Of a DNA stretch of 64,000 nt, positions 701-61,768 are shown in pieces. A program made the translations under genes and the position numbers. The notes under the pieces are model-generated. The model worked only from the letters and a program-made list of their open reading frames with translations. It did no database searches and was not told the DNA's origin. Position 1 is the first letter of the stretch. Each line of letters begins with the position of its first letter. The stretch comes from Cyanophora paradoxa CCMP329. Its lineage: Eukaryota; Plantae; Glaucophyta. Location of the stretch: the NCBI GenBank assembly GCA_004431415.1, contig QPMI01000402.1, positions 1 to 64,000 on the forward strand. Direction: 5' to 3'.

Positions 701-918
701 ATTCTCGATCGAAACAAATTTTGTAGAAATCGATTTGATCGGAGGCAAAAAAAATGACAGCTTTCTTCCCTCTTTTTTAAAACTGTACCTATATATCGAG
801 ACAGTATCCCGACCCAAAACTACTTAAGGACTTGGCAAATAATAGGATATATATAAAAGACAATTCCTCCTTCCGAAATTATTTTCTTCGTTAAAGGTAG
901 AAGTCCCCAAAATCGAAA

Positions 919-18345: not shown

Positions 18346-20011
18346 ATGCAGCGACCCACCCAGACGGCCGCCATTCTAGCCGCCGAGGCCGCGGTGCGCG
18401 CCCGGATCATCCGCGAGAGCGACCCGACGAACAAGCTCGGCGAGCTTTCGGCCCGCCTGTTACTGGAGGCATCACAGCTGCCGATCCAGTACCGTAGCTG
18501 CGCCGCGCGGGGATGCTGGGCGTCCACGGGGTGCCGGACGCCGCTGTGCACGGACCACCTCGAACGAGCCTCGGTGCGGGCCGCGCGGCGAGCGGCCGGC
18601 ACCTCCCGCGCGGCTGATTGTTGCGTAGCTACGAGTCGGGCCCTCCAGGGCGGTCCCGGGCGCCCTGGGCCTGTTCGCGGTTGCTTCGCCGGCCGCGCGG
18701 GCGCGGGCCGCCCTCCTCGGCCCGGCGTACCGCGCCCTCGTCTTTCACCCAAAGCTCCGGAAGCGCATCTGCCCGTACGACGGGTGCGCCGCGCCGCCCT
18801 TGGACCCTCGCTTTCGCCGGACGACGTCGACGCGCGCGCGCAGGCGGAAGATCGTCTGCCCGACGCACCAGTGGGCCCAGCTCCAGAAGACCGGGCGGTG
18901 GACGTGCGCTTTCCCTCGCCGCCGGCGCCGGCGCCGCGCGCGCCGCTCACGGGCGGGGGCGGGCCCGTTTACGCAGGTTCGTGTTCCAGATCAACTCGAG
19001 CTGCCTCATCGACGCCTCCCTCCCGATCTTTACGGGCCGCTGGGCGAACAACGGCTATCCGTTTGCGCGGAACAACGCCACGATCGCCGGAGACGGCAAC
19101 ACGCAGACGGCCTGGCTGCACGCCACAAAGTGCATCTACGACGACGACGAGGTGCGCCCCGCGCGCCCAACCCCCCCCCCCCGCGGCGCGCCGCCGCCGC
19201 CGACGAACGCGCCCGCCCGCGCGCAGATCCTCGTCTCATACGGTACGTGCCGCGCCCGCCCGTCTCCCCCGGCGCGACCCCGCGGCCGACCCCGCCCGTC
19301 GTGCAGGCGACGGCTTCTTCGATAAGCTGCTGGGCCAGCTCAAGGCGGGCGTCTTCGCCGAGTGCGACTGGCCCGGGCAGGTGCGCCTGTCGGAGCGGGA
19401 CGAGCGGATGTCGAAGCGCCCCCGGGGCGAGCTGGACGGCCTGGCGGTGCTCGGGTGCGCCGCGGGCGCCTGGACCCCAGGACCGCTGGTGGGAGCGCGC
19501 GGAGGCGGCGGCGGCCGCCCTCAAGTTCGTGGCGCGGGTGGTCGGCATCCTGGAGGACGAGGACGACGGCTGCGGCGGCGGCTCGGCCGAGCCGGCGATC
19601 CTCTGGCCGCGCTGCCCGTTTGCGGCGCGCTTCGGATCGTGCGGCGCGCCGGCGGCGGCGCCCGCCCCGCCCCGCGCACCCCGAGCCCCGCGGCGGGGAG
19701 CGGCGCGACCCCGTCCGGGTGCCGTCGACGACGCCGGCGCCGGCGCGGCCCGCGGCGGCCTTCTGGCCGCCCTGCCCCTTTGCAGCGCTCTGCGGGGCGG
19801 GCGGCGCGCGCGCGGGGCGGGGGCGCCCGCTCCCGCCCGCCCCGTCGGGGCGGGTCCGGAGGAGGCTTCTCCGGCGCCGGCGCCGGCGGCGCGATCCCCG
19901 GCGGCCCTCTGGCCGTCCTGCCCTTTGCCGCGCGCCTCGGGCGGCCGCGGGCGGGGCGTTTACGCGTGCGAGGACGCCGCTCTGCCAGGGGCAAAGCGGG
20001 CGCGCTCGTAA
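18346..20011 (+). CDS. Spliced SET-domain methyltransferase with Cys/His pre-SET segment
   Basis: After removing introns (18574-18628, 18784-18843 and at least three more): CAARGC..PLCTDHL, LRVGPSRAVPGALGLFA, ICPYDG, FVFQINSSCLIDAS, GRWANN, LHATKCIYDDDEILVSYGDGFF. This is canonical SET motif order. The 3' end is uncertain. Confidence 0.8.
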
Positions 20012-23526: not shown

Positions 23527-26066
23527 ATGGCTGATATCGGTGCCGCATCGCGTTTGCAGCTGCCGTCCGCGGTTCACGACATCGCAAGCATCGTAGAGGC
23601 GATCACGACCGCAGCAACGGCTCGGTACGACAAGGAGGCCTTCTGGAGCGAAATCTGCGGGGACCCGTCCGAGATTGTGGCGCTATGTTCATCAGCGGGA
23701 AAGGATCTCGAGGGCGGTATCAAGGACGCAGGGGCCCGCGCGTGCGATCGACTTCGAACCCTGCTCGGCCGCGACGGACCGCCGCCTCCACCGGACACGG
23801 TGGAGAGGGCCCTCGTCCTTGCGATTCGGTACGAGATGACACAGGTCGTCGATATGCTGCTCCGGAGCCTTCCGAGTGCGCGCGTGGATGTGCTCGAACG
23901 CGGCCTCGCTCTAAAGTTGGCCGTCTTAAAGGTGAGAACGCTGTTAACCGTTTACCGACTCTTCAACTTTGTGCCGTACCCGCACCTTGCTGATTTACGC
24001 ACGGTACCGCGTAGGCCGGCGCGGGAAACGATCATGAGCGCAACAGAAATGTGTGGGTCCTCGTGTCGCATCTATCAGAGGTGATCTCCGACGAGAACAT
24101 CGAGTCCGTGATCGCAAATGTCAACGAGATGCTCTTCTTTGCCATCGCACTCGGGCAGCGCGACACTGTGCATCGCATTTTACATGATCTATTCTCGCGC
24201 ACGGGCCGCAAGCTCTCGACGTACTGGACGTTTCCCAAGGTCCACGTCCAACTCCCCGGCGTCGACGGCCTCGAGCCCGCGGATTTTACATTTCCCTCCG
24301 TGATCGATGTGGTCATGGTATTAAACAGGGACGATACGAACGACATGGTCAGGGCCTTGCTCGAGCTCATGCCGTCTCCACCCCTTTCCGATCTCTGGCA
24401 ACCGAGCGCTTCGGCGCTTCGCACAACTGTCGCCGCACTTCGCGCCGTCGAAGTGTTGCCGGCCCCCAGTGAACTACTGGAGCCCGAGGATTACGCCATC
24501 TCGGTGGCCTTTGTCCGGGCCGTGGAGAGCGCCTTCCACAACGTTTGCAACCCCGCGATGTTCGAAGCCCTCGTAAAAAGGTGCCTCCGCGGTTGGACGA
24601 AATATGAGATCTCCCTCTCTTCGTCGTCGTCTTCCGATTCCGACGCACCGCACCCTGATTTGGTGCGTTTACCGTGCAATCGCTCTGATAATATCTACCA
24701 AAAACGCCTTGCAGCCGCTGATTTGTACCCGCGCAGGAAGAATACGAGCTGCTTCCCAGATGCATTTCATCGTCCACGTTTATATCCTTCTTGGAACGTC
24801 TGGGTCTCGCTGCGTTTACCGGCGGCGACGCCATTCGGCACCGCAAGGAGCAGGTCTTGCGTGCGGACAGCCCCGAGGCGGCGGTCGTGCTCGAAAAGTT
24901 CAACGTGGACCGCATCCATTACGAGCGGATCGTCAACGAAGTGGCGGACGACCTCGAATCGAGAGCCCGCGAGCGCTCCATGAACATCCTCCGGGCAGCA
25001 CTGCGCTCGCCGTGCACCGTCCATCATCCCGATCGTCCACCGGTGCCCGCCCTCGATTTCATCCTCGCCTGGGCACAGTCCCGGGCGCTTTACGACGAGT
25101 CGGACACCGCGTTCAAGAATGTGGAGCTCGATGCGTACGTCAAAGTGCTCTTCAGACCCGACGTCACCGTCTCCGAGTTTACGCGCGGCATCGCGGCGTG
25201 GTCGCGGGCGGTTCAGAACCGCACGCTGCGGATCGACGGCGCCGTCGTGCTTCGGTCGCTCTTCGGACCCGTGACCATCACCGGTCCCTCGCCAGCGACG
25301 TTGGCCAGCAAGCGCTCGCACGTCCTGCGCATGATCCAGGATCGTAAGATCAAGCTCCGGGCCGCCGCCGAGTTGGAGGGGATCCCGATGGACGCCCTCC
25401 ACGTTGCCGCGCGCGCGTTGGACGCAAACGTACGCACCCTCGCCGTCGTTTACGGCGCCCCGCGGTATCCCTGCTCAACGCAGCGCAGGAAATAAACACC
25501 ATGCTGGACATCCTGAGCTCCTGCAACTCCCTCGGATCGTTCATCATCAAAGGCATTTTCACCCACGCGATCGAGGGTGTCGACGCAAATGTCAAGGTTC
25601 GCTGCGGGCCCCTGGTTTACGTTTTGTTCGGCCCGCCCCGAGTGCGCGCGCGATCCTGACGGGCACGCACGCGCGCAATTTGCAGGTGACCTCGCGCGAG
25701 ATGTGCGAGCGGGCGCGCGACTTTTTCGTGTTCCTTCGGGAGGTCGACTCGCGGGTCGCCGCCGGGGGCCGGATCTCGGGGAGCGAGGACTGCAAGAGGG
25801 CGCTGGCGACGCTGAAAACGGTCGATGAACTGAAATGCATGGCCGGCTCGAAAGAGTGGAAGCTCCTCGGCGGTCCGGAGATATGCCTCGATGGGTGGAA
25901 GGCGCTCTACGGTTCGTCGTTGATCGATCCGCATCCGGATCGTGCCTCTCTCGGGGGCAACGGCGTTGTGACGGGCGCGTTTTTCAGATGCGGCAGAGGC
26001 GTGCGTGGGTTCGGGCGGCCCGTCGCCCTCTGTGCGGCCCGTCGAGGCGGCCCCTGCCCCCGGTAA
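23527..26066 (+). CDS. Spliced hypothetical helical protein (possibly degenerate ankyrin-like)
   Basis: Phase-0 introns 23932-24014 and 24663-24736 join ORFs 23395/24051/24791 exactly in frame. Two more GT-AG introns start near 25430 and 25597. Confidence 0.6.
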
Positions 26067-26905
26067 ATACGATGCGGGAATGGCGTCTTGATCCCGTAAT
26101 ACCGGTGTTGACCTGCACGCGCAGGGCCGCCGGTGCACGCTCCGTCGCCCTCTTCGGCCGACCGCGGCGCGCCGCCGTCGTCGGCAACCGTTTCCGCGGG
26201 TCCGTTTGCGTTGCGGAATGATGCTCGGAGGGTTGATTTACGCCCGAATGCAGGGGCCGATACCACCAAAGCCGGCGCGGCAAACGTTGGTCGCCCGCGG
26301 GAGCCCGAGGCGACGTCGCAGGCCGCCGGTGCGCGTAAATGAATGAACCGCGCGCGAGGCGCGCGTGGAGGCGCCCACCGACCGATCCTGCAGTCGCGGT
26401 CGCGGTGCCGGCCGCGGCGCCGGCCGCTCCATCGCCCCAGGCACCGAGTCCCGCGCCCGCTGTGCGACCCGCCGAGGCGGCCTCTGCCCCTGGTAAATAC
26501 GATGCGGGAATGGCGTCTTGATCCCGTTTATATACGTAATACCGGCGTTGACCTGCACGCGCAGGGCCGCCGCCGCAGGCGTCGCCCGCTCCGTCACCCT
26601 CTCCGGCCGACCGCGGCGCGCCGCCGTCGTCGGCGACCGTTTCCGCGGGTCCGTTTGCGTTGCAGACGAATACTCGGAGGGTTGATTTCCGCCCGAATGC
26701 AGGGGCCGATACCACCAAAGCCGGCGCGGCAAACGTTGGTCGCCCGCAGGAGCCCGAGGCGACGTCGCAGGCCGCCGGTGCGCGTAAATGAATAAAACGC
26801 GCTCAAGGCGCGCGTGGAGGCGCCCACCGACGGATCCTGCAGTTGCGGTCGCGGTGCCGGCCGCGGCGCCGGCCGCTCCATCGCCCCAGGCACCGAGTCC
26901 CGCGC
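26030..26905. repeat. Tandem duplication, two copies of ~430-447 bp
   Basis: GGTAAATACGATGCGGGAATGGCGTCTTGATCCCGT at ~26062 and ~26492, with high identity continuing to GCACCGAGTCCCGCGCC at ~26441 and ~26890. Confidence 0.9.
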
Positions 26906-26967
26906 CGGCGGCGGCGACGGCGACCACGCGTGCGCGCCCGCCCCCCACACCGTTCCGTTGTTCCAAG

Positions 26968-30057: not shown

Positions 30058-30727
30058 CTACTCGCCGTCTTCCTCTTCCGCGCCGTCGCCTTCCGCCTCG
30101 GCCTCGGCGAGCAGGTCGTCCGGGATCGACATTCCCTCTGGGACCTCGTCCTCGAGCCGCTGCCGCACCTCCTCCAACCCCTTGGCGTCGACACGGAGGA
30201 GCAGGGGCACAAAGTTGACAAAGTCGTGCGCGTGGGCCGCGCCGGTGACCCGCGCGAGGCCGGGGAAGCGCCGCAGGGTCGACGCGAGGTGGCGGAGCTC
30301 GAGGTAGGTTCGCGCTTTCATCGTCGACTCGTCGGTGCGGAATCCGCAGCTGCGCAGCGCGTCGTCGTAGCGCGGATCCACGTTGATCTGTGTGTGGGGC
30401 GCGCGAGAACATGAGGGGCGCGGGCCCACACGCGCGCGCGCGGGGAACGCACCGCCCTGAAGAGCCCCCACGTGCGCCGGCTCTTGCTGTACCGCGCGAC
30501 GAAGCGCTCGTAAATGCCGAGCACGGCGCACGCGATCAGCAGTATGGCCCGTAGGCGTCCCACGCCGGCGTCGTTTGCGTAGCGCGCGAGCTCGGCCCGC
30601 GCCTCGGCGCTCGCGTCGAGCCCGAGCCCGACGAGGACGGGGGAGACCCCGCCCTCCATGCCGCGGAACATGGCGTCCAGGCTGCACGCGTCGACGCTCG
30701 CCTCGCTCCCGGCGGGGGCTTTGCCCT

Positions 30728-30760
<33 letters not shown>

Positions 30761-32189
30761 CATCGCGTTCGTCCTCGGCGAGCCGCCCGAGCTCCTGGGC
30801 CCACCGCCGGCGCTGCTCCACCTCCCACGCGTCGTCGCTGTCGTCGCCGCCGTCGCTCGCGCCCTCTTGCGAGCCCGGCTCGCCGTCGCGGGGCGCGGAA
30901 GAGGCGTCGTCGGCCGCCGCGTCGTCGTGGTCTTTGTCGTCGTCGTCGTCGTTGGCGACGGCGTATGCCGCGACGAGCGTCTGCGGGGCGGGGGCGGGTT
31001 GGTGGGGGCGGGCTTGACGGGCAATGGGCGGGTCGGGGGTGGGTGGGAGTGGGTGTGGGGAGGCCGTACCCGCACGAGCTTGTCGCTGCGCCATGGTTTA
31101 CGGTCGTCCGAGGGCGCGCTCCACTTGCTCCGCTTGCGCTTCGGCCGGCTGCTGGGGCCCGCCGATGGGTCGTCTTCGTTGCGTTCAGAGTCGCTCGGGC
31201 TCTCGGTGGCGGCGGCGGCGGCGGTTCGTGCACGGCGGGGGCGGTCCTTGGTGACATTTTCGGGTTCGCTCTCGTCCTCGAGCTCGTCGCGTTCCTCGGA
31301 GGGCGCGCGCGCCGCGGCCGGCGCGGGTGCGTGCGCCGATCCCGCGCGGCGCTTGCCCTTTTTGGACGCGCTGTGCTGGGATTCCGTTTTGCCGGGCGGC
31401 GCGGTAGGGGGGGCTGCGGCGGCGGAGGACGACGACGCGGCGATGGCGGCGGGGGCGGGGGCCGAGGTGGGTCGGGGCGGGGGCGGGGGCGGGGCCGGGA
31501 GCGGGGGCGGCGATGGGCGCGGGCGGCGCTGCGGGAAGCGCCGCGACGAGCCGTGCGCCCGCGTCCCGGGCCGAGGCGAGAAGAGCGCGCCCCGACGCCT
31601 CGCCCTCCGTCCACGCCCGCGGATCGGATGCGTTGGCGATGTAGCCCACGTAGGCCGCGTACGCGTCGAGACGGCTGCAGGGAACGAGCTTTGCGTGGTC
31701 GCATCCGGGCGCGGTGCAGGCCGCCGTCGGTGCCGCGGCGAGCTCTGCGCCGGCGGACGATCCTGGCTCGGGCAGCGCGTGCGCCTCGGGTGACTGGACG
31801 GCCCCGCCCGAGGCGAGGTGCAGGGCGCAGGAGGTGCACGCGATGCGCCCCTCGCGGAGCACGTTGGCGGCCGCGCGCGGGTGGGCGTCGACGGCCTCGG
31901 CGATGCTCCGAGCGCCGGTCCGCTCCAGGAGCGCGGCGGCCGTGCACGGGTAAACGAAGAGCGGCGGCGTCGGCTGGGCGCGCCCGCAGCGCGTGCAGCG
32001 GTGCTGGAAACTGATCATCTCGTGCCGCCACTCGGCAAAGTATCCCGGGAGCGCCACCCGGCTCGGGCGGGACTCGATCTCCGGGGGAGGGACGGGTGGC
32101 TCGCCCGAGGCTCCGTTTGCGGGTGCGGATTCGGCGCCGGTGCCCGCAGGTGCGGCGGCGGCTGCCCCTGCGGCTTCCGGAGGGGTCAT
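30058..32189 (-). CDS. Spliced hypothetical protein with CxxC pairs and acidic regions
   Basis: HRCTRCG..IACTSC exon, acidic exon (NDDDDDKDHDD) and terminal exon INVDPRYDDALRSCGF..EEEDGE. Confidence 0.5.
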
Positions 32190-32279: not shown

Positions 32280-32935
32280 AGCGCCGCTGCCGCCGCGGAT
32301 ACGGGGCGGGCAGGACCCCTCGGGGTGGCTGGTGAGAGCGGCCCGCCGGCGCCGCCGCGGATACGGGGCGGGCGGGACCCCTCGGGGTGGCTGGTGAGAG
32401 CGGCCCGCCGGCGCCGCCGCGGATACGGGGCGGGCGGGACCCCTCGGGGTGGCTGGTGAGAGCGGCCCGCCGGCGCCGCCGCGGATACGGGGCGGGCGGG
32501 ACCCCTCGGGGTGGCTGGTGAGAGCGGCCCGCCGGCGCCGCCGCGGATACGGGGCGGGCGGGACCCCTCGGGGTGGCTGGTGAGAGCGGCCCGCCGGCGC
32601 CGCCGCGGATACGGGGCGGGCGGGACCCCTCGGGGTGGCTGGTGAGAGCGGCCCGCCGGCGCCGCCGCGGATACGGGGCGGGCGGACCCTCGGGGTGGCT
32701 GGTGAGAGCGGCCCGCCGGCGCCGCCGCGGATACGGGGCGGGCGGGACCCCTCGGGTGGCTGGTGAGAGCGGCCCGCCGGCGCCGCCGCGGATACGGGGC
32801 GGGCGGGACCCCTCGGGGTGGCTGGTGAGAGCGGCCCGCCGGCGCCGCCGCGGATACGGGGCGGGCGGGACCCCTCGGGGTGGCTGGTGAGAGCGGCCCG
32901 CCGGCGCCGCCGCGGATACGGGGCGGGCGGGACCT
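32280..32935. repeat. Tandem array of ~10.5 x 62-bp GC-rich units
   Basis: GGTGAGAGCG recurs at 32331, 32393, 32455, 32517, 32579, 32641, 32701, 32762, 32824 and 32886. Confidence 0.97.
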
Positions 32936-33304
32936 CATAGGGTTCTGGGCTTTGTTCGGTGCCACTAGAAGATGGCGAACTGATACTAGCTATCCTAGAT
33001 GGTGAACTGATACTAGCTATCCTAGATGGCGAACTAGAAGAAGATGGCGAAGATCCTAGTTCTTCGTGTACATGCCCGACTACAGGTAATCTGATATGTT
33101 CCTTGTTCTCCTAAGTGTATCATGGTATCCTAGAGATGTAAATATATACAATTCTAAAGATCTTATCAGTAACGCGAGTCGCCGACATGAAGACGTACGA
33201 AACTTTGAATACTTAGAATTTTATCATACCAACTGGAAATAGTACACGTTTCTCCAATCAGATAGAAATTACATAGATCGGAGCCAGACAACCAACCGCG
33301 CACA

Positions 33305-34135
33305 TCGCTCTCATCAACTTCCCGAGGGGTCCCCCGGGCCTCTACTGCGCGGCGCCGACGACACGACCTCGCTCCCGTCAGCAACGAAGCGCCCCCTGCC
33401 GCCGCCCCGCCCACGCGTTGCCGCGGGGCGGCCCGGCTCTCATCAACTTCCCGAGGGGTCCCCCGGGCCTCTACTGCGCGGCGCCGACGACACGACCTCG
33501 CTCCCGTCAGCAACGAAGCGCACCCTGCCGCCGCCCCGCCCGCGCGTCGCCGCGGGGCGGCCCGGCTCTCATCAACTTCCCGAGGGGTCCCCCGGGCCTC
33601 TACTGCGCGGCGCCGACGACACGACCTCGCTCCCGTCAGCAACGAAGCGCCCCCTGCCGCCGCCCCGCCCGCGCGTCGCCGCGGGGCGGCCCGGCTCTCA
33701 TCAACTTCCCGAGGGGTCCCCCGGGCCTCTACTGCGCGGCGCCGACGACACGACCTCGCTCCCGTCAGCAACGAAGCGCCCCCTGCCGCCGCCCCGCCCG
33801 CGCGTCGCCGCGGGGCGGCCCGGCTCTCATCAACTTCCCGAGGGGTCCCCCGGGCCTCTACTGCGCGGCGCCGACGACACGACCTCGCTCCCGTCAGCAA
33901 CGAAGCGCCCCCTGCCGCCGCCCCGCCCGCGCGTCGCCGCGGGGCGGCCCGGCTCTCATCAACTTCCCGAGGGGTCCCCCGGGCCTCCTATTGCGCGCCG
34001 GCGGCACGGGCTAGCTCCCTTCAGCGACGACGCGGCCTCTGCCGCCGCCCCGTCCACGCGCCGCGGCGGGGCGGCCCGGCTCTCATCAACTTCCCGAGGG
34101 GTCCCCCGGGCCTCTACTGCGCGGCGCCGACGGCG
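33305..34135. repeat. Tandem array of ~6.5 x 129-bp units
   Basis: TCATCAACTTCCCGAGGGGTCCCCCGGG recurs at ~33311, 33440, 33569, 33698, 33827, 33956 and 34083. The last unit is diverged. Confidence 0.97.
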
Positions 34136-34258
34136 CGGGCTCTCTCTAATAAACAACACCGACGCTCAAGTGGTTACACAGGTTTAATTTAATTTACTAC
34201 AACCGCTAGGCCGCATTTACAAAATGAGAAACAAACGATTCCACGCACATTGCCCCAT

Positions 34259-37200
34259 TTACGGGTCGCTCAAAATGCCCATCCGAACCAGTTCCGCCCC
34301 ACCGTCCCACTCCGTTTCGCGGGGAAGCGTCGTGCGGAGCGGCACGCCGTCGAGCAGGTGCCGCAGTATCCCCTGGTACGCCGGACGGTGCAAAAAGTTC
34401 CGGTTCTCGCCGCCCGAGTGGAGCTCGAACAGAATGCGCCGCCGCTGTTCCTCGTCAAGCGGAATCGGGCCGCACCGCGGGACCGTTGCGCCGATGGCCA
34501 TCGCGTCCGCAGCCCACGCTGCGCGCAGCGTCTCGCGGGCCTCCATTTCGAGCCGACTGCGAAAGCGCTCAAAGAGGGCGGGGCGGGCGGCCGCCGAGAG
34601 CCCGACCACTTCCTCGCCCCCGTCACGATCGTACGTCTCGTCTATAACGTCCTCGCTCTCCATCCGCATCCAGCTACCCCTCCCGCCGTTGCTGCGAATC
34701 CGCACGCGTAGATCGCGAGGCGCGGCGGCCTGAACATACTCCAGAATCCCTCCGGCGAGCCGATTCGTCTTGCGCTTCCGCTCCGACGCGATCCGGCTCT
34801 CGGTGATGGTCGACGCGGACGCCGGTGCGGACCGACACCCGTTGTAGTCGGGTCCGTCGTCGCCGTCGACGTCGATCGCTTCGCTTCCCGACCCGGCGCC
34901 GCCGCGGGCGGGTCCGCACGCGCGCTTCGCGGGGCGCTCGTGCGCCCACTCGCCCCCGCACGCCGTCGCCGCGGCAACGCTCTCCGCCACGTCCAGCCTA
35001 TCGTGGTACGGATCGCCGAGGTCCAGCAGGACGCAGCGCAGCACCGCGCACGCATCCGTCGCCAGGCGCGTCGCGTACTCCTGGCGGTCGAGCGCGGGCT
35101 CGCCTGCGCCGCGCACGAGATGGAGCGGCTCCTCGCCGCGCTTGCCGACCTTTTCCCCGTTTACCGCGTCCAGCGTGACCGAGTACGCGTAGCCGCCCGG
35201 CCCGGGCGCGGACCCGTTGACGCGCGCGTCCATCCTCTCCATGAGGTGGAAGATGGGCAGCGCCTCGGACGAGTACCTCTCCAGCACCCGCCCGCCCGTC
35301 GCCGCGTCGATCGAAAACGCGGCTCCGTTGTTTTTTACCGGGACCTGGAGGTCGGCCAGCGAGTAGTAGCCGCCGAGGGCGCGCCACACGCGGTACGCGG
35401 TCTCCTCCAGCGCCTCCCGCAACGCATGAACCGCGTCCCCCGCGCCGAGCAGGGCGCCGATGACGCCGCGCTGGAGCAAGGCCGAGGCGTGGGACGCGCT
35501 CCGCTTGACGGCGTCGAAACCCGTGATCGCCACGCCGCGCTCCTCGACCGCGCCGCCGCCGGGGCCGCAGACGTACTTGACGCCCGCGTAGCCCTTTTTA
35601 CGAGCAATCAGAAACGGCCGAAACGCCTTTTCGACCTCGATGTAAAGGCGAGGGCACCCCGCGCCGCGGTGCGTCTCGTTGACCAGCCGCTGGATCGTCG
35701 CCGCCCGCCGCAACGCCTCCTCCACGGCGATCGCCTCGGCAAAGTGCACAAAGATCGAGTCCGTATCCCCGTAAAGCACCTCCGCGTCCGGGTACGCCCG
35801 CTGAACGCACGACATCGCCGTGCGGAGCGCCTCGCGTCCGCACGCCGTCGTCGATTCGGCGACGGGGCGCGAGGCCAGGGGCCCGCCGCGGCACCCGAAG
35901 ATCCCGTAAATCGAGTTTGCCACGACCTTGATCGCGAGCTGGAGCGCCCCCAGCACCCGCGCCTGGGGGGACGACGGGTCGAGCTCGGCGGCGCGCGCGC
36001 GCACCGCGGCCCGGGACGCCACGAGCGTGGAGACGAGGGCCGGCACGACGCCGCGGGTCTCGTCGGGGTCCCGCCGAAAGACGTGGATCCTCTCGCCCGC
36101 GGCGCAAAAGACGTGCTGGTCTTCCGAGCACAGCACCTCGCGCCCCGCGCGCGCCGCCCGGACGCAGCGCCGGCCGGCGGCGTCGGCCTCGAACACCGCG
36201 CCGGCGCCGACGTAGAGCGAGGGACACAGGCCGTAGGACCGCATGCAGCTCGGGTACAGGCTGCTGTAATCCAGCGTGACGACGGGCGAGGTGTACCTGC
36301 CGATCATCGGCGGGATCACGTGGGCGCCGTCGTACGACCCGTCGCCCCCGTTTACGTCGCCCTTTTCGTCGCCGCCCTCGTCCCCGCGGCCGCCCCCGGC
36401 GAGGGACGCGAGGCTCCGCTCGACGAGGACGGGTGGCCGCCCCTCGGACCTCGCCCTCCCGTAGCGACCGAGGAGCGCCTCGCCGCGCACCGTCGAGCCG
36501 CCGTACTGGATGAGGGAGAGCGGGACGCCCGTCTCCCGGCAGAGGGCAAGCGCGTTGAGGAGCGCCCCGCGCCGGTGCGCGATCCGGAGTACGAGCGACG
36601 CGTTCCGGACGCAGTGCGCGGCGAGCCGGGCGCGGCCCGCCGCGCCGCCCGCGCGAACGAGGGCGGCAATCGTCGAGGGCTCGAGATCCTCGCAGGGCTC
36701 GCCCAGCACGTGCGCCGCGGCGACGCCGAGCCTAGAGTCCACAAAGCCGGCGGCCGCGTCGCCCCGGAGCTCCTCCAGCGCGTCAAAGTGGACGAGGCCG
36801 CCCGCGAGGCGCCGCCCGCATTCGTCGCTGGGGCGGTACCGCCCGGGGCGTTTACCGCGCCACTCGCGCTCGGGAAGCGGCGAGGGGCACGCGTCCTTGC
36901 CGAGGTGGCGGAACCAGTCCCGCGCCGCCGCGCCGCGCCCAAAGAGGTGCTCGGAGCGCCGCGCGAGGAACGGGAGGTCGCGCCCGCTGCTGTTGAAACC
37001 GACCAGCACGTCGGCCTCGGACGCCGCGTTTACGAACCACTCGAGGAGCGCCGCCTCGGCGACGTCGGCGTCGGACTGCGTAAATGCAACGACCTCGCAG
37101 TCTGGGATCGGCGGCGCGCACGCCCCGGCGACGCCCACCTGCCGACGGCGGGGCGACCCATCCCCGCCGAGCTCCGCCAGGACGATGGAGATGAGGACGA

Positions 37201-37873
37201 CGCGGTCCTCGGGCCGCGCGGGATCGGGGACGCGCGCGGCGCCCTCGGCGGCGACGGTCTCGATGGCCAAGTAGGCGACCGTCACGCGCGGCGGCGCGCT
37301 CTCGTACTCGCCGCCCGCCGGCCCCACGCCCGCCGTCGGCGCGCACCACTCGGCCACGCCGGGGCGCGCGCGGCCCTCGCGGCAGGGCGCCGCGCCGCGG
37401 ACGCGGATCCAGGTGCCGGGAGAGGTGCCCGTCGACTCGTGAAACGCGACGTGCTGGCGGGGCTGGTGTCCCATCACGAGCGGGTCGTAGTTGGGGCCGC
37501 GCGCCGCCCTCCAGCGTTGCTGGAGCCCGTCGAAAAGGAAACGGAGCGCCGGCCAGGGCGCGCGCACGTCCCACGCGCTCAGGGGCTCCTCCACGTAGCC
37601 GTGCAGGGGAAAGACGGGCCGGGGCTGCGCGTCCACCCGCGCCCCGCAGCACCGCGCGGCGTCGTCGAGGACGGCGTAGAGGCGTGCGGGGTCCGGGTCC
37701 GCCGGCGCCGGCGCGATGCTGAAGCGAGCGTAAAAGTCGTCCACGTACACGACGACGGCGGCGCCGTCGGGCGTGCGGCCCCAGAGGCGCACCCGGCCGC
37801 GCGCATCGCCTCGGACGTTGGGCGCGCGGATGGTGCAGTAGTCGGTGCTGTAGCAGAAGAGGAGGAGGTCCAT
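34259..37873 (-). CDS. polB: Family B DNA polymerase (delta/viral-like, RNA-primed type)
   Basis: LWGRTPDG N-terminus; YDGAHVIPP; LDYSSLYPSCM; QLAIKVVANSIYGIFG; VLYGDTDSIFV; EVEK..KKGYAG. Likely start MDLLLF at 37873, downstream of TATAAAAG. Intronless. Confidence 0.97.
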   Translation of the reverse strand: MDLLLFCYSTDYCTIRAPNVRGDARGRVRLWGRTPDGAAVVVYVDDFYARFSIAPAPADPDPARLYAVLDDAARCCGARVDAQPRPVFPLHGYVEEPLSAWDVRAPWPALRFLFDGLQQRWRAARGPNYDPLVMGHQPRQHVAFHESTGTSPGTWIRVRGAAPCREGRARPGVAEWCAPTAGVGPAGGEYESAPPRVTVAYLAIETVAAEGAARVPDPARPEDRVVLISIVLAELGGDGSPRRRQVGVAGACAPPIPDCEVVAFTQSDADVAEAALLEWFVNAASEADVLVGFNSSGRDLPFLARRSEHLFGRGAAARDWFRHLGKDACPSPLPEREWRGKRPGRYRPSDECGRRLAGGLVHFDALEELRGDAAAGFVDSRLGVAAAHVLGEPCEDLEPSTIAALVRAGGAAGRARLAAHCVRNASLVLRIAHRRGALLNALALCRETGVPLSLIQYGGSTVRGEALLGRYGRARSEGRPPVLVERSLASLAGGGRGDEGGDEKGDVNGGDGSYDGAHVIPPMIGRYTSPVVTLDYSSLYPSCMRSYGLCPSLYVGAGAVFEADAAGRRCVRAARAGREVLCSEDQHVFCAAGERIHVFRRDPDETRGVVPALVSTLVASRAAVRARAAELDPSSPQARVLGALQLAIKVVANSIYGIFGCRGGPLASRPVAESTTACGREALRTAMSCVQRAYPDAEVLYGDTDSIFVHFAEAIAVEEALRRAATIQRLVNETHRGAGCPRLYIEVEKAFRPFLIARKKGYAGVKYVCGPGGGAVEERGVAITGFDAVKRSASHASALLQRGVIGALLGAGDAVHALREALEETAYRVWRALGGYYSLADLQVPVKNNGAAFSIDAATGGRVLERYSSEALPIFHLMERMDARVNGSAPGPGGYAYSVTLDAVNGEKVGKRGEEPLHLVRGAGEPALDRQEYATRLATDACAVLRCVLLDLGDPYHDRLDVAESVAAATACGGEWAHERPAKRACGPARGGAGSGSEAIDVDGDDGPDYNGCRSAPASASTITESRIASERKRKTNRLAGGILEYVQAAAPRDLRVRIRSNGGRGSWMRMESEDVIDETYDRDGGEEVVGLSAAARPALFERFRSRLEMEARETLRAAWAADAMAIGATVPRCGPIPLDEEQRRRILFELHSGGENRNFLHRPAYQGILRHLLDGVPLRTTLPRETEWDGGAELVRMGILSDP

Positions 37874-42948: not shown

Positions 42949-43440
42949 TGTAAGCGAAACGTTTGTATACAAATACGGAACAGGCCATATTGCTGTAGGA
43001 CGTAAATCTGACGGTGAGACGGGAAGGGCACCGCCGGCGGGGTGGACTTCTTTTGGACCGACCAGACAGACGCGCACACCCCATTCCCCCCCCTTCCGCC
43101 GCCTCGTCCACCCTCTGCGGCCGCGCGCCGCCGCACCCGCCGCACGGAACGAGTCGGACGGGGCGCGCGGCGGCGGCGTTTACGCGGGTCGCGGCGGTCC
43201 CCGCCCCGCACCCGCCCCGCCCCGCACCCCCGCCCCGCCCACCCCATCGCCTCTGCCCCTCGGTGAGGCTTTACTCGTGCTACCCGCTGCTCGTGGACAA
43301 AGATCCGAGGCGGCCCGCCCGCCCGCGCGACGAGCCCGTGATGCTTTGCGCGACACAGACATCTATCTATGTCTCGATCCCGCAACGCGGCGCGCACCGT
43401 CGCCTGCGCGCGGCACTACCCGGCGCGACGAGGAGCCGGC

Positions 43441-43956: not shown

Positions 43957-44129
43957 CGTTTGCAAAGGTGAGCGAGAGCGATGGCGAGGCCCCTCGGAAG
44001 GGGGTCTTAAATGGCCTGGGCCACAGGCCCTCGCGCGACCCAGGAGGAGGGGATACAGCGACTCTCGAGTCGGCGGCGGCGCGGGGCGGACCCACCGCCC
44101 CGAGTCACTCCTCTTCCGCCCCCTACCCC

Positions 44130-47100
44130 AGCCGCACGGAACGAGTCGGACGGGGCGCGCGGCGGCGGCGTTTACGCGGGTCGCGGCGGTCCCCGCCCCG
44201 CACCCACACCGCCCCGCACCCCCGCCCCGCCCACCCCATCGCCCCTGCCCCTCGCACCGCGTCGTCTCCGCGGCCGGTGTTGCCGCCAGGGGCGACGGCG
44301 CGCGCGCGGGGACGGGGTGAGGGGTACGGCTCGTGCGCGTCTGTCTGTTCGGTCCAAAAGAAGTCCACCCCGCCGGCGGCGTCCTTCCCGGATTTTCATG
44401 ACGTCCGAGTGGGAACGCGCCCTCCCGTCTTTTTCCGTTCTAGTATCTTTACTCTCTTTCTTCCCACTTTGACCTTTAGAAGTAGAGAAAATGTAGGTAA
44501 ACCAAGGTAGGGAAGAGGTTTAAGGAAAAATGGGAGGCCGCGTTCCCACTCGGACGTCCGAAAAATCCGGGAAGGACACCGCCGGCGGGGTCGACTTCTT
44601 TTGGACCGACCAGACAGACGCGCACACTCCATCCCCCCCCCGTTCTGTCCCGCCGCGCGCCGCCGCACCCGCCGCGCAGAAAGAGTCGGACGGGGCGCAC
44701 GGCGGCGGCGTTTACGCGCGTCCCAAAGGCCCCCGCCCCGCACTGGCCTCGCCCCGTACGGCGCCCACCCACCCGACCGCCTCTGCCCTCGCACCGCGCC
44801 GTCGCCGCGGCCTGCGGCGCCGCCAGGGGCGACGGCACGTGCGCGGGGACGGGGTGAGGGGTACGGCTCGTGCGCGTCTGTCTGGTCGGTCCAAAAGAAG
44901 TCCACCCCGCCGGCGGCGTCCTTCCCGGATTTTTCGGACGTCCGAGTGGGAACGCGCCCTCCCGTCGTTTTCCGTTCTAGTATCTTTACTCTCTTTCTTC
45001 CCACTTTGACCTTTGGATGTAGAGAAAATGTAGGTAAACCAAGGTAGGGAAGAGGTTTAAGGAAAAATGGGAGGCCGCGTTCCCACTCGGACGTCCGAAA
45101 AATCCGGGAAGGACACCGCCGGCGGGGTCGACTTCTTTTGGACCGACCAGACAGACGCGCACACTCCATCCCCCCCCCGTTCTTTCCTGCCGCGCGCCGC
45201 CGCACCCGCCGCGCAGAAAGAGTCGGACGGGGCGCACGGCGGCGGCGTTTACGCGCGTCCCAAAGGTCCCCGCCCCGCACTGGCCTCGCCCCGTACGGCG
45301 CCCACCCACCCGACCGCCTCTGCCCTCGCACCGCGCCGTCGCCGCGGCCTGCGGCGCCGCCAGGGGCGACGGCACGCGCGCGGGACGGGGTGAGGGGTAC
45401 GGCTCGTGCGCGTCTGTCTGGTCGGTCCAAAAGAAGTCCACCCCGCCGGCGGCGTCCTTCCCGGATTTTTCGGACGTCCGAGTGGGAACGCGCCCTCCCG
45501 TCTTTTTTCGTTCTAGTATCTTTACTCTCTTTCTTCCCACTTTGACCTTTAGAAGTAGAGAAAATGTAGGTAAACCAAGGTAGGGAAGAGGTTTAAGGAA
45601 AAATGGGAGGCCGCGTTCCCACTCGGACGTCCGAAAAATCCGGGAAGGACACCGCCGGCGGGGTCGACTTCTTTTGGACCGACCAGACAGACGCGCACAC
45701 TCCATCCCCCCCCCGTTCTTTCCTGCCGCACGCCGCCGCACCCGCCGCGCAGAAAGAGTCGGACGGGGCGCGCGGCGGCGGCGTTTACGCGCGTCCCAAA
45801 GGTCCCCGCCCCGCACTGGCCTCGCCCCGTACGGCGCCCACCCACCCGACCGCCTCTGCCCTCGCACCGCGCCGTCGCCGCGGCCTGCGGCGCCGCCAGG
45901 GGCGACGGCACGCGCGCGGGGACGGGGTGAGGGGTACGGCTCATGCGCGTCTGTCTGGTCGGTCCAAAAGAAGTCCACCCCGCCGGCGGTGTCCTTCCCG
46001 GATTTTCATGACGTCCGAGTGGGAACGCGCCCTCCCGTCTTTTTCCGTTCTAGTATCTTTACTCTCTTTCTTCCCACTTTGACCTTTGGATGTAGAGAAA
46101 ATGTAGGTAAACCAAGGTAGGGAAGAGGTTTAAGGAAAAATGGGAGGCCGCGTTCCCACTCGGACGTCCGAAAAATCCGGGAAGGACACCGCCGGCGGGG
46201 TCGACTTCTTTTGGACCGACCAGACAGACGCGCACACTCCATCCCCCCCCCGTTCTTTCCTGCCGCGCGCCGCCGCACCCGCCGCGCAGAAAGAGTCGGA
46301 CGGGGCGCACGGCGGCGGCGTTTACGCGCGTCCCAAAGGTCCCCGCCCCGCACTGGCCTCGCCCCGTACGGCGCCCACCCACCCGACCGCCTCTGCCCTC
46401 GCACCGCGCCGTCGCCGCGGCCTGCGGCGCCGCCAGGGGCGACGGCACGCGCGCGGGGACGGGGTGAGGGGTACGGCTCGTGCGCGTCTGTCTGGTCGGT
46501 CCAAAAGAAGTCCACCCCGCCGGCGGTGTCCTTCCCGGATTTTTCGGACGTCCGAGTGGGAACGCGCCCTCCCGTCTTTTTTCGTTCTAGTATCTTTACT
46601 CTCTTTCTTCCCACTTTGACCTTTAGAAGTAGAGAAAATGTAGGTAAACCAAGGTAGGGAAGAGGTTTAAGGAAAAATGGGAGGCCGCGTTCCCACTCGG
46701 ACGTCCGAAAAATCCGGGAAGGACACCGCCGGCGGGGTCGACTTCTTTTGGACCGACCAGACAGACGCGCACACTCCATCCCCCCCCCGTTCTTTCCTGC
46801 CGCACGCCGCCGCACCCGCCGCGCAGAAAGAGTCGGACGGGGCGCGCGGCGGCGGCGTTTACGCGCGTCCCAAAGGTCCCCGCCCCGCACTGGCCTCGCC
46901 CCGTACGGCGCCCACCCACCCGACCGCCTCTGCCCTCGCACCGCGCCGTCGCCGCGGCCTGCGGCGCCGCCAGGGGCGACGGCACGCGCGCGGGACGGGG
47001 TGAGGGGTACGGCTCATGCGCGTCTGTCTGGTCGGTCCAAAAGAAGTCCACCCGCCGGCGGTGTCCTTCCCGGATTTTCATGACGTCCGAGTGGGAACGC

Positions 47101-56329: not shown

Positions 56330-56396
56330 CAACCGGCCCCTGGGGCCCATGGTCGAGTGCGAGCCTCCCCCGGACCACCCCCGTCGCGCCGGCACC

Positions 56397-59300
56397 ATGA
56401 CGGGCAAGCGGTCCTCTCCGCCCATCCCCTCGCCCTCGGACGACGAGGGAGACGACGCTGCAAAGCGCGGGAGGATCGTAAACGACGAAAGCGGTGGCAA
56501 GATCGAGGACGCAATCGACTCTATGGACGTCGACCCCATCCCGCCGCCGCCCCGCCCCGAAGACGCCGTCGAGGTCATCTTCGACGGCGCGTGGCACCCC
56601 TGGACGGCGCTCGAATCGTCGTCCGAGTTTGAGCGGCGCGGCATGGCGTCCACCTTTGCGGTTCGCTCCAACGGCCGCCTCCGCCTCGTGCGCTACGGAG
56701 GCGTGGAGACCTTTGTCGCCGAGGGCGTGCGCCACGCGCGCCGCCGCGAGCTCGTCGTCCGGCTGCGCTCCGAGCGGTACCGCCGCTGCTCGCTCGCGGC
56801 GCTGCTGCGCGCGTTCCCGGACCTCCGTCGGGCCGCGCGCGCCGCGTTTCGCCGCTGCCAGAAGCTGGAGCGCTGGGGGGTCCCGTTTACGCTCGAGTAC
56901 GACGGCGCGCTCGGGTTCCGCATCTTTTACAAGTCCATCACGCGCTTTCGCGAGCCGCCCCTCGGGCGGCGCTTTGCCTCTTTGGAGGGGCAGACCACGG
57001 CGACGCTCCCCTCGTACCTTCGGGTCCTCCCGAGCAGCGTCCCCGCCCCCGCGTCCGTCGAGACGTACCTCGGCGCCGCCGCCGCCTCGGTCCAGCTCCC
57101 CGCCACGCGCATCGACGACTACCGCGCGCTGGGCTCGGACGAGCGCGCGGAGCGCGTGCTCGTCCGCACGGGCGAGCCGGACGACGGCTCGTGCGAGGCG
57201 CGCGCCGACCTCGCCGAGTGGCTCCTCCCAGAGGTCGTTCGGTACGCGGGCGGCCTCGGGGTGCCGCCCGCCGCGCCGGCCGGGAGGACGATCGAGCTCG
57301 ACGACGCGGAGCGCGCGCGCTTTGCCGTGGCTCTCGGCCTCGTCGCCGGCCCCGCCTGCGCCGAGCTGGCGGCGGCGCCGGGGCGCGTTTACGTGGACCC
57401 CGCGAGCGTGCGGGTGGAGGCCTGGGTCAACTCGATCGAGTACCGGGCGCGTTTACCGTGCCCCGCGTGCGGGCGGGGGGACCGCTGGGCCGAGCTGACG
57501 GCCGACTCGGTGCGGGAGCGCGTCGGCGTGCGCTGCTGCGGCGAGTGCGAGCCCGCCATCGCGCGCAAGCGGCGGCGAGCCAACCGCAGCCGCTACCCGA
57601 AGCGGCCGCTCCACTCGGCGCTCAAGGCGCTCCGGCAGTGCGAGGTCGCCGCCGACGAGGCGCGCTTCGGAAACCTCGGTCGGGACGCCGTCGAGCGGCG
57701 GGAGCACTACATGGACGCCGCGCGGTTCGGTGCGACGGCGAATCGCGCGTTCGAGGGGTGCGGCACGGCCTCTGCCGAGCACGTCGCGGAGATCGAGCGG
57801 GTGGCCGAGGCGACGGCGAGGCTTTTCGGCGGCGAGGGTACCTTTTGGACGCTCGAGGGCATCGCCGAAAAGTGGGCCACGCTGAATGAAGAGGAGCGCC
57901 GCAAGGAGCGGGGCGCGCTGCGGACGGGCTTTCAGCTCCCGGAGCCCGGCAAGATGGACGATTGGATGAGGGTCTGTTGTCCCAGAGGGGGAGATCGACG
58001 ACGCGATGGACGAGATCATCGTGGATCCCGACGTGACAAACGTTTACGTCGACGACAGGCTCATCCACGACGCCATTGCGCGCGCCTTTGCGGAAGGATA
58101 CGAGCGCGTTTACGTCGTGCTGGAGGAGGGCATGGGCGCCGGAAAGTCGACGGCCATCCTCAGGTCGGCCGCAGAGGTGGTCCGGGACCCAACGATCGCG
58201 AACCTCGCCGAGGACACGACCGTTTCGATCGCCTGGTTCGTCAACTCCCGCTCCCATCCCGACCAGCTCAAGGAGAGGAACGACTTTCGGGCGGTGTTTC
58301 GCGGACTCGTGGACAAAGAGGGGAGGGAGGTGCAGCGGTGCTGGATCGGGTACAGGGAGGAGCGAAAGGCGGGCTCCGATGCGCCGGACGCCCTGCTCGT
58401 GACGGCCGAGTCGTCCCATCGGTTCGTCCAGGGCGCCTCGCCGTACCACATCCTCGTCATCGACGAGGTCGGCAAGATCGCCGCCATCATCAGCTCGTCG
58501 GGCACCCTCGCCAAGGATTTACGCCAGGCGGCCGCGGCAAAGGCTCTCGCGCGGATGCTGGCCGCGGCGCGCGTCGTTTATCTCGCAGACGCCGACCTGG
58601 ACCGCGAGACGCTCCGATTTGTCCTCGACATGGGCAATTCGGAGCCACGACCCGACGTAAACGCCTCCGAGGGGGAGACGGCGGCGGGGACTCGGACGAC
58701 GAGGGGGTGGCGCTCGCGGGGAGGACCGGCGCGGCGCGGACAAAGCGCATCCTGTATCGTAAATCCCACGGGGCGGGGGCGACATGCGCCACGCGTGGGC
58801 CGCGCTCCCGCTCTCTGAAGCCGGGCTGCGCGTCGCCGCGCTGCTCCTCCTCGGCTACAAGGTGATCGTCTCCTCGACCACCAAAGACGAGTTCAACGCG
58901 ATCTGCGCCGTTGTCGACAGCCACCCGGACCTCGCGCACGTCCGCAGGGCCCTCGTCTGCGGCAACTCGGACGATCGCGATCGCAGGCTCTTTTCCGACC
59001 CGAACCGGTTCGCCGAGCTGGACTTAATATGTTACAACACCGCGGTCGCTCAAGGGAGCTCCATGGACGAACCCCACGTGCTCTTTGACGTCTGCTGCGT
59101 GGTGCACGGAGGCGTCCTCGGGGACGTCAACATCCAGTACCAGCTCACGCCTCGCTGCCGGGCCTTTTCCGAGACCCTCGCGCTCATCTTCTGCCCCCTC
59201 GGGACACAGCCCAAAGAGAACGCCAAGGGCGCGCTCGAGCTCCTCGAAACGCGGCGGGCCGAGGTCCGGAGTCACCGGCGACGCGAGCGGCGCGACAGGG

Positions 59301-61768
59301 GCGCGGGCGTTCGCAGGGAGCACGACAACGGCGCCTTTGCCGTGGCGACGGCGCAGTGGTTGAACCCCACGCAGGAAAACGCCCTCCTCCGTCGTCAGGC
59401 CCACCAGATGGCCAACGAATCGCACACGCGCCGCAGCTTCATCTCGTCCTTTAACGCCAAGCTCCTCTCGCGCGGCAGCCTCGGCGTGGTCGTCGTTGAT
59501 TTCAGCGCTCCCGCCGGCGAAAATGTAAAGGAGGAGATCCAGGCGCTACGCGAGCTCTTCCGCCTGCACGTCATCGCCCACCCGGTCCTCGGCGCGCGCG
59601 CCCTCCCCGGCGAGGACGTCTCACAGGAGAAATCGGCGGCGGGCCGGCTGTTTACGGCTCGCAGGGCCCACCGCGGCGATCCAAACGACTACGAGCGTCG
59701 CTCGCTCGATCTCGCCTTTGCCGCGCAGGCCTTTTGCGTTGCGCCGGAGGAGCTCGGCGCCCGCGATATCGTCTGGTACCTCCAGGATCCCAACGGCAAG
59801 AAGAATCGACCCGAGCTCAGGAACCTCCTCCACGCGCTCGAGGTGGAGATGGGCGGCCGCCCCCGGCGCGCTCGGTCGACGTACGTTCTCCAGCCCACGT
59901 TTACGGACGAGGCGCACGCGGACCGCAGCTTTCGGGAACTGCTGGAGATGGTGCGGTGCCCGGCGTTGCTCGCGCTCCGGCACGTCGTGGATTCGAGCCG
60001 CGCGGGCGCGGCGCCCGTCGCCGACGCCGCGGTGGCGGCGCCCCTCTTGCGAATCGCCCTCTCCGAGGCGCCCCACGACCCGCCGGGGTTGGCGACCTCG
60101 GCGGTGCGCGTGGGGCTGGACGTCCTGGGGCGCGACCTCTTTGACGATGCGACCAAGGCCACGCTGGAGGCGACGATCTCGGTGGAGGCGGGGCTCCTCG
60201 AGCGCAACTTTTCCGACCTGCCGGCCGAACGACAGGCGTGCATCAAGAGGGCGGTCGGGGTCGGGGATGCGGATGACGCTCTGCCCGTCGCCGCCGTCGG
60301 CCGGGCGCTCGCAAAGCCATCCGTGCGGGACGAGGCGCGGGCCCTGTTTTACGGGAGCGTTGCCGGGCAGGCGCCCGTCGAGGTGGCGCGCGGCGAGCTC
60401 GAGGAGCTCTCGACCATGCTGGCGGCCCGGCGCGCCCTCGAGGACGAGGTCGCCGTCGAGGTCTTTCGAACGTTGGACGTCGTTACGGGGCGGCTCGCCC
60501 CCGGGGAGCGCATCACGGCCGAGACGGTGCTGCGCATCGGGCGCGACGGCGAGCCGGCGGCCGTGGAGGAGCTGCGCAAGGTGACGGCCAGGCTGCTCGT
60601 GGCGCCGCACCGGGACGCTCGCTCGCTGGAGCGCGGCGCGGCGTGGAGGGAGCGCCTCGCTCGGCTGACGGACCTCGGGCCCTTGAACGTGCTCGACCCG
60701 GCCGGCGCGGACGACCACGCCATCCGCACCGAGATCGAGCGCCTGCGCGTGCTGGGAGTGGGCGCGGACGAGTTTGGTCGGCCCCTGGCGTGCCCTTTGG
60801 TCGAGTCGGATGCGAAAGGCGTCCTCCTGAACCTCTACGCCAAGGCCATCGAGCACGTCGGCCTCCCCTTTCGTGCAAAGGATACCTTTGGTGCCATCGC
60901 ACGGGCAACCCGCTTCTGTTCCGACAGTTTACGTCCCCTCTCCGGCACGTTTCCGACCCTGGCGGCCCGACTGGGCCAGCTCAACCTGGCGTTTACGGTC
61001 CTGGCGGCGGCCGCGACGGTGCTGGGACGTGCAAAGAAGAGGGCGGCGGATATCAAAGCGGCCAAGCAGCGCGCGCACGATCAGAAGATACCCTACCGAG
61101 AGCCCCCCGAGCCCGAGTATCCCGCGGAGAACCCGTTCCTTTGGCTCTCGGCCGAGGCGCGCGCGTCGCTGACCCCAGAGGACGGTGTCCTGTGCGATTA
61201 CGACGTCAGGGACGTTGTACATCGCGCGCTCTCGTCGCCAGAGGCGAGCCCGGTGCTGGATTGGGACGTAAACGGCACGACGGTGCGCGGGGCGGTCGTA
61301 AACGCGCTGCAATGTGCCGAGACGGCCCTCCAGGAGGCCACGAACCTGCGAATCGCGGCCACCGAGGACGACGTGCGCGCCCTCTGCGAGCAGGTGGTTC
61401 GGTGGAGGGCCGAGCACGGCCACAGCCGCGTCCTCGCCGAGCCGTATCCGGAGAGGCGCGGCCGCGGCGACCACATCCTCGTCTGCAGGTCGCTCTTCGA
61501 GACGTACACGTGCATGGGACGCGAGCCGACGGTGACTTCCTCCGGGGAACGGATCGGGTGGTTCCTGAACACGTCCTCCGAGAGCGGAATCGCCGCGGTG
61601 ACCAAGTGGCAGGAGGAGACGTGGAAGACGCCGCCCCAGAGCGCCGGGGTGTTCCCGCCAAAGGCGAATCGCTACCGCGAGATCGAGCGGGCCGGCCGGC
61701 GGCGCACGCGTTACCTTTGCATACCGCGGCAGTGCTTTGTAAACGTAGGCGTTGCGCTCAATTTTTAA
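56397..61768 (+). CDS. UL9-like origin-binding SF2 helicase (~1790 aa) split by three frameshifts
   Basis: EGMGAGKST (I), VTAESSHR, YHILVIDE (II), VYLADADL (III), VIVSST (IV), LICYNTAVAQGSSMD (V), YQLTPRCR (VI), in herpes UL9/NCLDV ori-binding order. Frame changes at G runs at ~57970, ~58688 and ~58778. Confidence 0.85.

Follow-up and report, generated by a model that had tools for sequence, protein, structure and literature searches.

Results

Layout of the locus

The stretch of DNA analysed here, 64,000 nucleotides of the Cyanophora paradoxa CCMP329 contig QPMI01000402.1 (hereafter the window), carries between the start of one gene and the end of another a non-coding block, in which two GC-rich tandem arrays face each other across a unique spacer. 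The block, its neighbours and the other genes of interest are as follows.

30058..32189, minus strand: left gene, function unknown, with a Cys-rich N-terminus, an acidic middle and at least two introns read by eye
32282..32934, plus strand: left array, 62-bp unit in 10.6 copies, 11 monomers (Tandem Repeats Finder, 98% matches)
32936..33305, no strand: spacer, unique, 370 bp
32970-33035, plus strand: 27-bp direct repeat in 2.4 copies (Tandem Repeats Finder)
32970, 32997, 33024 and 33042 (repeat region 32970..33051), plus strand: AGATGG(C/T)GAA 10-mers, spaced 27, 27 and 18
33112..33161, no strand: lowest-GC 50 bases of the spacer, 26% GC, predicted unwinding site
33307..34138, minus strand: right array, 129-bp unit in 6.4 copies, 13 monomers (Tandem Repeats Finder: 33307-34132, 95% matches)
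34259..37873, minus strand: polB, family B DNA polymerase with exonuclease domain, intact (PF00136, E=1e-50)
right of polB: MORC-like ATPase and RING protein (Pfam scan)
right of polB: TFIIB (E=8.6e-9)
right of polB: GIY-YIG (weak match)
52.9-55.2 kb: primase-like protein (motifs read by eye)
56349..61768, plus strand: large SF2-type helicase gene in several frames, weakly similar to UL9/CyRepA1, candidate trans-acting initiator

The left array measures 653 bp at 84% GC and is G-rich on the plus strand; the right one measures 826 bp at 78% GC and is G-rich on the minus strand, and the G-rich strands of both point 5' to 3' into the spacer. There are 11 monomers on the left and 13 on the right, and the outer ends of both arrays begin at the same monomer phase. 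Units 7 and 8 of the left array are shorter by 2 and 1 bases within G/C runs, and the missing bases are possibly assembly errors. Namely, sequencing runs show at least 17 single-base insertions relative to the window at 16-21 kb, which makes short indels in the window sequence suspect, these two units included. In the right array, the sixth unit is a 127-bp variant. The motifs that the first-pass annotation had quoted for the two units are found where it placed them, on the plus strand for the 62-bp unit and on the minus strand for the 129-bp unit; the 13-mer core GGGACCCCTCGGG has 8 copies on the plus and 7 on the minus strand and is confined, across the window, to the two arrays. An HMM of the monomer tiles 11 left and 13 right copies, a circular result given that it was built from the array monomers, and its best match elsewhere in the window has an E-value of only 0.12.

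The spacer had been described as AT-rich, which holds relative to its surroundings (it is second-lowest in GC among the 370-bp windows of 5.3-64 kb) but not in absolute terms, its GC content being 41%. Its short repeat, AGATGG(C/T), is likewise present, but not merely twice as had been noted, since the 10-mer AGATGG(C/T)GAA is counted four times. The lowest-GC 50 bases lie nearly centrally, 203 and 170 bp from the inner edges of the arrays, and a TATATA-like tract sits at this low-GC point. A central AT-rich palindrome was also considered and rejected: the best candidate in the spacer is an imperfect one of 26 bp at 33131, and self-complementarity is at chance level, its score being equalled in 562 of 1000 shuffles.

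Relationship between the two arrays

The arrays had been proposed to share a core motif in inverted orientation. They are indeed homologous, but what they share is not the core alone; the homology takes in the whole monomer. The inverted match clearly exceeds chance, with a local alignment score of 48 against a shuffle mean of 23.8, and under either of two scorings none of 5000 dinucleotide shuffles reaches the observed score. An exact common word of at least 13 letters, for its part, arises in 45 of 5000 such shuffles. The opposite-strand homology extends over 625 bp at 67%, the arms being 66-69% alike, and the 129-bp unit aligns head to tail with two left units. In particular, of the 65 columns aligned between the core-bearing half of the 129-bp unit and the left unit, 43 are matches, a figure that no shuffle attains, be it one of 5000 at fixed phase or one of 500 at best rotation. 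For the other half, 43 of 68 columns match (9 of 5000 shuffles, and 48 of 500 under the second, stricter control), and the two halves match each other in 40 of 68 (0 of 5000 and 12 of 500). Judging from these alignments, each 129-bp unit probably consists of two head-to-tail copies of a 62-65-bp monomer that have diverged from each other and are homologous to the left unit. This dimer reading is firm for the half with the core and likely for the second half, from which the core has been lost.

Because the homology spans the arrays and because of the dimer structure, we infer that the block would be an old inverted duplication of a single 62-65-bp GC-rich satellite around a unique spacer, followed by separate homogenisation of each arm. 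Unequal crossing-over would homogenise each array on its own, and such separate homogenisation would leave a monomer in one array and a dimer in the other. The core does not stand out as a peak of conservation: when the match pattern is permuted, 4587 of 20000 trials contain a 28-column window just as good (p about 0.23), and a further p of about 0.27 likewise shows no preferential conservation. The suggestion that it is an iterated initiator site thus finds no support, its conservation being no higher than that of the rest of the monomer.

Support from sequencing runs

Among the runs listed, twenty DNA runs and no RNA run contain the region, the former with 94-96% of the sampled words of 30.0-38.1 kb, and four of these were examined, all in the form of contigs whose depth does not amount to copy number and which may come from one strain. 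In each of the four, the spacer appears without differences as a single contig of 417-432 nt that overlaps both arrays, and for this reason the block is no assembly artefact. Both inner array/spacer junctions are crossed by contigs in all four runs, the left outer junction is present in all four and the right one in three. Spacer depth in the four runs is 119, 50, 87 and 128, as against 108-167, 23-82, 75-129 and 102-201 for long neighbouring contigs, and the listed array-unit contigs stand at 6-9 times the spacer depth, consistent with the assembled copy numbers. In these four runs, the depth and the contigs at 90% likeness give no hint of amplification, or of further close copies that would make up a family. 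Episome tethering, which had been raised as one possible function, is left unsupported by a spacer depth that resembles that of the flanks.

Genes of the carrier element

As the first-pass annotation had it, polB lies next to the block: the intact gene adjoins the right array, from which its end is about 120 bp away. Polymerase delta is its closest solved structure, and the ESM clusters nearest to it contain polymerases of nucleocytoviruses, eukaryotes and archaea. Its best relative, P0002, is 47% identical and labelled Cyanophora paradoxa; together with P0028, a 1404-aa polymerase without a name that comes from a run assembly, the two form one long branch with a support of 1.0 in a tree of 42 of the 84 hits, drawn without named viral references. 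A search with the single protein found no relatives in viral contigs or metagenomes, and an alignment of two proteins found none in viral contigs and two weak loci in metagenomes. A 13-protein alignment reached 80 distant loci at 22-32% identity. The monomer is absent from such loci (best blastn E 0.19 over 80 loci, best nhmmer E 0.85 over 82), and some tandem array lies within 10 kb of polB in 9 of the 80. In viral contigs, the core pattern has 0 matches and the helicase alignment finds no loci.

The left gene starts about 90 bp from the left array, with a CATAAA motif at -55, and has no match in Pfam, PHROG or NCBIfam. Its introns imply nuclear transcription. A (C/T)ATAAA motif stands 27-72 bases before the start in 8 of the 13 genes tested, both neighbours of the block included, and a TGTAA signal follows polB, the MORC gene and the gene at 41.8 kb. 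The AATAAA just outside both arrays was considered as a signal for outward transcripts; we dropped this idea because the neighbouring genes have TGTAA and because the left copy sits at the position of the TATA-like motif.

The helicase gene lies 22 kb from the block and is frameshifted in the window sequence. It matches Pfam Herpes_ori_bp weakly (E=0.25) and CyRepA1 at E=0.0066, its paralogues reaching 6.8e-9 and 3.5e-7, and these CyRepA1 matches all fall well short of the curated cut-off. In its nearest ESM clusters (0.97-0.98), Herpes_ori_bp is found in 53%, 31% and 38% of members, which we take as a lead, and a 4-sequence profile gave no PDB match. On these comparisons, the helicase weakly resembles UL9/CyRepA1 initiators. 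Searching 1.84 billion representatives returned 5 hits, all labelled C. paradoxa, and the family comprises six gene models on five contigs of one species, one of which is numbered two genes away from P0002. Over their main segments, two C. paradoxa gene models with differing contig names match the window helicase at 89-100%, and one segment of P0088 matches it at 69%. P0088, which has another contig name, reads through the positions of the breaks, and the latter may be assembly errors or specific to this copy.

The nearest named relatives of the carrier element are C. paradoxa gene models, and no herpesvirus gene was found in the window. Capsid and packaging genes, together with a polB inside a known clade, would mark a member of the Nucleocytoviricota or Mirusviricota. 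Two Pfam scans of 34 frames each within the 64-kb window found no capsid family, for which reason we infer, rather than observe, the virus-like nature of what is probably a large, chromosomally integrated element. The primase label rests on motifs read by eye because a single-sequence fold gave a pLDDT of only 35.9.

Strand composition and G-quadruplex patterns

With the arrays masked, the turning points of the cumulative G-C, T-A and keto skews all fall within the spacer, at 33051-33138. At 0.5, 1, 2 and 4 kb, block shuffles reach the amplitude of the T-A skew 3, 3, 12 and 105 times in 2000, so that it exceeds most shuffles at 0.5-2 kb but not clearly at 4 kb, and the amplitude of the keto skew is weak, being equalled by 76 to 609 of 2000. 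Once both flanking genes are masked, the apex moves out of the spacer. What is more, at four-fold sites of 26 hand-picked frames, genes directed toward the spacer and away from it are alike (Fisher p 0.25 and 0.82). Leading strands are G+T-rich, and under this rule the polarity at the spacer is terminus-like. The canonical G-quadruplex pattern is found in 8 left units, in none of the right array and 52 times in the whole window.

Discussion

The reading that we prefer, if only tentatively and at somewhat short of an even chance, is that the block is a replication origin of the large virus-like element that carries it. An origin had been proposed at the outset, and the part of that proposal concerning the setting still fits, with polB adjacent and a weakly UL9/CyRepA1-like helicase in the same element, but the initiator core is unsupported and no significant palindrome is present. 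The case for an origin consists of inverted homology over the whole arrays, a non-coding position beside polB, a central GC minimum, the helicase and skews that turn in the spacer. The points that keep it at this level are an unconserved core, the missing palindrome, the lack of skew at silent sites and of amplification, a terminus-like skew polarity, the commonness of G-quadruplex patterns and a helicase 22 kb away. Mechanistically, the arrays or the spacer's four 10-mers would serve as loading sites for the element's helicase or for host factors. Since the G-rich strands of both arrays run toward the spacer, unwinding would focus near 33.14 kb, on the 26%-GC stretch, and forks would depart in both directions. 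In other words, the mirror-image G-rich arrays would be loading platforms and the spacer the melting site, with the element's own helicase and polymerase serving both.

Two other tracts of the window compete for the same role. At 44128-49470, with a partial copy at 43020-43262, a 537-bp unit is repeated about ten times, and within every unit 300 bp are self-complementary (81%) around a centre of 40% GC. Apart from short GC-rich matches (best E 0.01), this unit has no clear homology with the two arrays of the block. The 537-bp array is reminiscent of tandem origin multimers and, as an origin candidate, is at least as good as the block, which lowers the odds for the latter. The second is the lower-GC tract at 20.2-23.3 kb: it is gene-free, dense in short palindromes and holds the lowest-GC windows of 5.3-64 kb. 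Parts of it stand at about twice the flank depth or more in the four runs, and it is possible that it is an element end or a repeat common to other loci.

How does the block compare with known origins? HSV oriS and HHV-6 oriLyt have inverted elements around an AT-rich spacer, an arrangement that the block shares, and its carrier encodes a helicase that is weakly UL9-like. That said, those origins have two or three short boxes, whereas the block has 24 monomers of 62-65 bp, for which binding by an initiator is predicted. Origin multimers and the U73/UL9 origin-binding protein are treated in PMC5923074. KSHV ori-Lyt depends on 600 bp of GC-rich tandem arrays that lie next to an AT-rich core (PMC5397509). 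The likeness here lies in about 1.7-1.9 kb of non-coding DNA, with 600 bp or more of GC-rich arrays (in our case, 653 and 826 bp) and an AT-richer core. In ori-Lyt, however, the 20- and 30-bp arrays lie on a single side and an AT palindrome is essential, unlike the homologous mirror-image arrays of the block with no significant palindrome. In layout, the block is also like a UL9-dependent herpesvirus origin, but a central AT-rich palindrome was not found and the core shows no excess conservation. For want of such a palindrome, and with binding and replication being predictions, we do not class the block as an origin of the UL9 or KSHV type.

An iteron plasmid origin consists of phased 17-22-bp direct repeats beside an AT-rich tract with the rep gene adjacent; in the block, the 10-mers are spaced 27, 27 and 18, the initiator-like gene is 22 kb off, and we rejected this assignment. 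In metazoans, in turn, initiation takes place 250-300 bp downstream of a G-rich element with a defined orientation (PMC6646384). The block is similar in that a G-rich repeated strand lies 5' of the candidate initiation site, 170-200 bp away, which is near that offset, and here on both strands. It differs in that canonical G-quadruplex patterns are found in the left array only, such patterns being common across the GC-rich window.

Among the alternatives to an origin, the strongest, though in our estimate still unlikely, is that the block has no sequence-specific role at all. A GC-rich minisatellite would have been locally duplicated in inverted orientation, and its copies would have grown by slippage or unequal crossing-over. 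This would agree with divergence that is even over the monomer, with a dimer half that does without the core, with unrelated arrays elsewhere in the element and with the tandem arrays found near polB at nine of the distant loci. It sits less well with the balance of 11 and 13 monomers and their common outer-end phase, or with a distinct low-GC spacer that has repeats of its own; the lack of spacer differences in the four runs speaks weakly against it as well, these being perhaps of one strain.

Distinctly less probable is that the block marks the joined ends of a once linear genome, whose satellite-bearing terminal inverted repeats met on circularisation, the circle later integrating elsewhere. 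The arms would then have diverged after joining or would serve packaging or resolution. Joined terminal inverted repeats do look like facing inverted arrays, and the polarity of the skew at the spacer is terminus-like. Precedents for inverted satellite arrays in large DNA viruses exist as well: the TIRs of punuivirus GEVEs contain a variable satellite array (10.1101/2024.09.03.611062) and orthopoxvirus ITRs contain tandem repeats of several lengths (PMC5977245). However, the arms of those viruses are long, near-identical and terminal, whereas those of the block are short, internal, 370 bp apart and only 66-69% alike, and this while polB and other neighbours are intact. The want of near-identical arms speaks against a junction of terminal repeats or of concatemers, and the fused genome termini proposed by the first-pass annotation are disfavoured. 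Moreover, the spacer is not self-complementary, the homology does not clearly reach into the flanking genes, and contigs cross the inner junctions in all four runs.

It is very improbable, in our view, that the block controls transcription, either with the spacer as a bidirectional promoter of C-rich array RNAs or with the arrays forming an enhancer, or a boundary, that lies between polB and the left gene. The arrays have the same sense when read outward from the spacer, the TATATA-like tract coincides with its low-GC point, and a frame of 232 codons begins with an ATG at the left array's inner edge. The right array, however, has no ATG frame of at least 100 codons through its repeats, repeats that are GC-rich and poor in stops can be expected to have open frames anyway, no TGTAA in the outward sense stands just outside either array and there is no Rfam match. 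Transcription of this kind is coupled to replication in KSHV ori-Lyt and would be compatible with an origin. Finally, a foldback-type transposon remnant, with modular inverted arms and a unique loop inserted into the element, is barely credible: the outer end of each arm begins in the same phase of the monomer and the layout fits such transposons, but these form multi-copy families with target-site duplications, whereas here the spacer is one invariant contig with no variants at 90% likeness in the four runs, which argues against a family of close copies, no duplication is seen by eye and the arms are only 66-69% alike.

Returning to the origin reading, one can extend it to the element family as a whole. 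Namely, an undescribed family of large nuclear DNA elements in a glaucophyte, with at least four divergent helicase lineages within one gene set, would replicate from a mirror-image monomer/dimer array origin by means of its own UL9/CyRepA1-like initiator; we consider this broader proposition doubtful. Giant-virus endogenous elements, that is, clusters of virus-like genes, have been reported in C. paradoxa (PMC12344493), and section 9 of that source, the same species notwithstanding, gives no repeat or origin anatomy. Mriyaviricetes-related regions are mentioned for a glaucophyte in 10.1101/2025.04.19.649669, the main text of the C. paradoxa genome paper, so far as available, has 0 occurrences of 'virus' or 'viral' (PMC6704402), and the available portions of the mirusvirus papers contain nothing on such arrays (10.1101/2024.01.18.576163, PMC12768974, PMC12606086). 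We found no title or abstract that describes the block, and supplements could still list the element. The block is real and well defined, it appears not to have been described before, and the large elements to which its carrier belongs form a divergent family; the role predicted for it is plausible.

To our knowledge, the origins of large DNA viruses and elements of protists are largely unmapped. A compact origin candidate beside polB, together with a candidate initiator and divergent paralogous elements in a culturable alga, is testable by comparison and by binding. If the broader proposition on the element family is true, it would provide a mappable origin-initiator pair for a large DNA virus infecting protists; if the block is a neutral satellite, it is merely a tidy example of higher-order repeat evolution following an inverted duplication.

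Several further features of the window deserve mention. An intron-rich gene at 8258-12866 has exons with tyrosine-recombinase-like motifs by eye, the four exons tested have no Pfam support, and the gene could be the element's integrase or part of a separate transposon. Positions 1-5200 hold a decayed element that is AT-rich (37-40% GC), contains fragments of a PriCT-2/DUF5906 primase-helicase and is depleted in CpG (o/e 0.44 vs 1.0-1.5 in the six other regions tested). A degenerate 160-bp repeat lies at 19564-19958 and a 440-bp tandem duplication at 90% identity at 26019-26909. The hexamer GTTTAC/GTAAAC, by raw count, occurs in 100 copies in 5300-64000, with two in every 537-bp unit.
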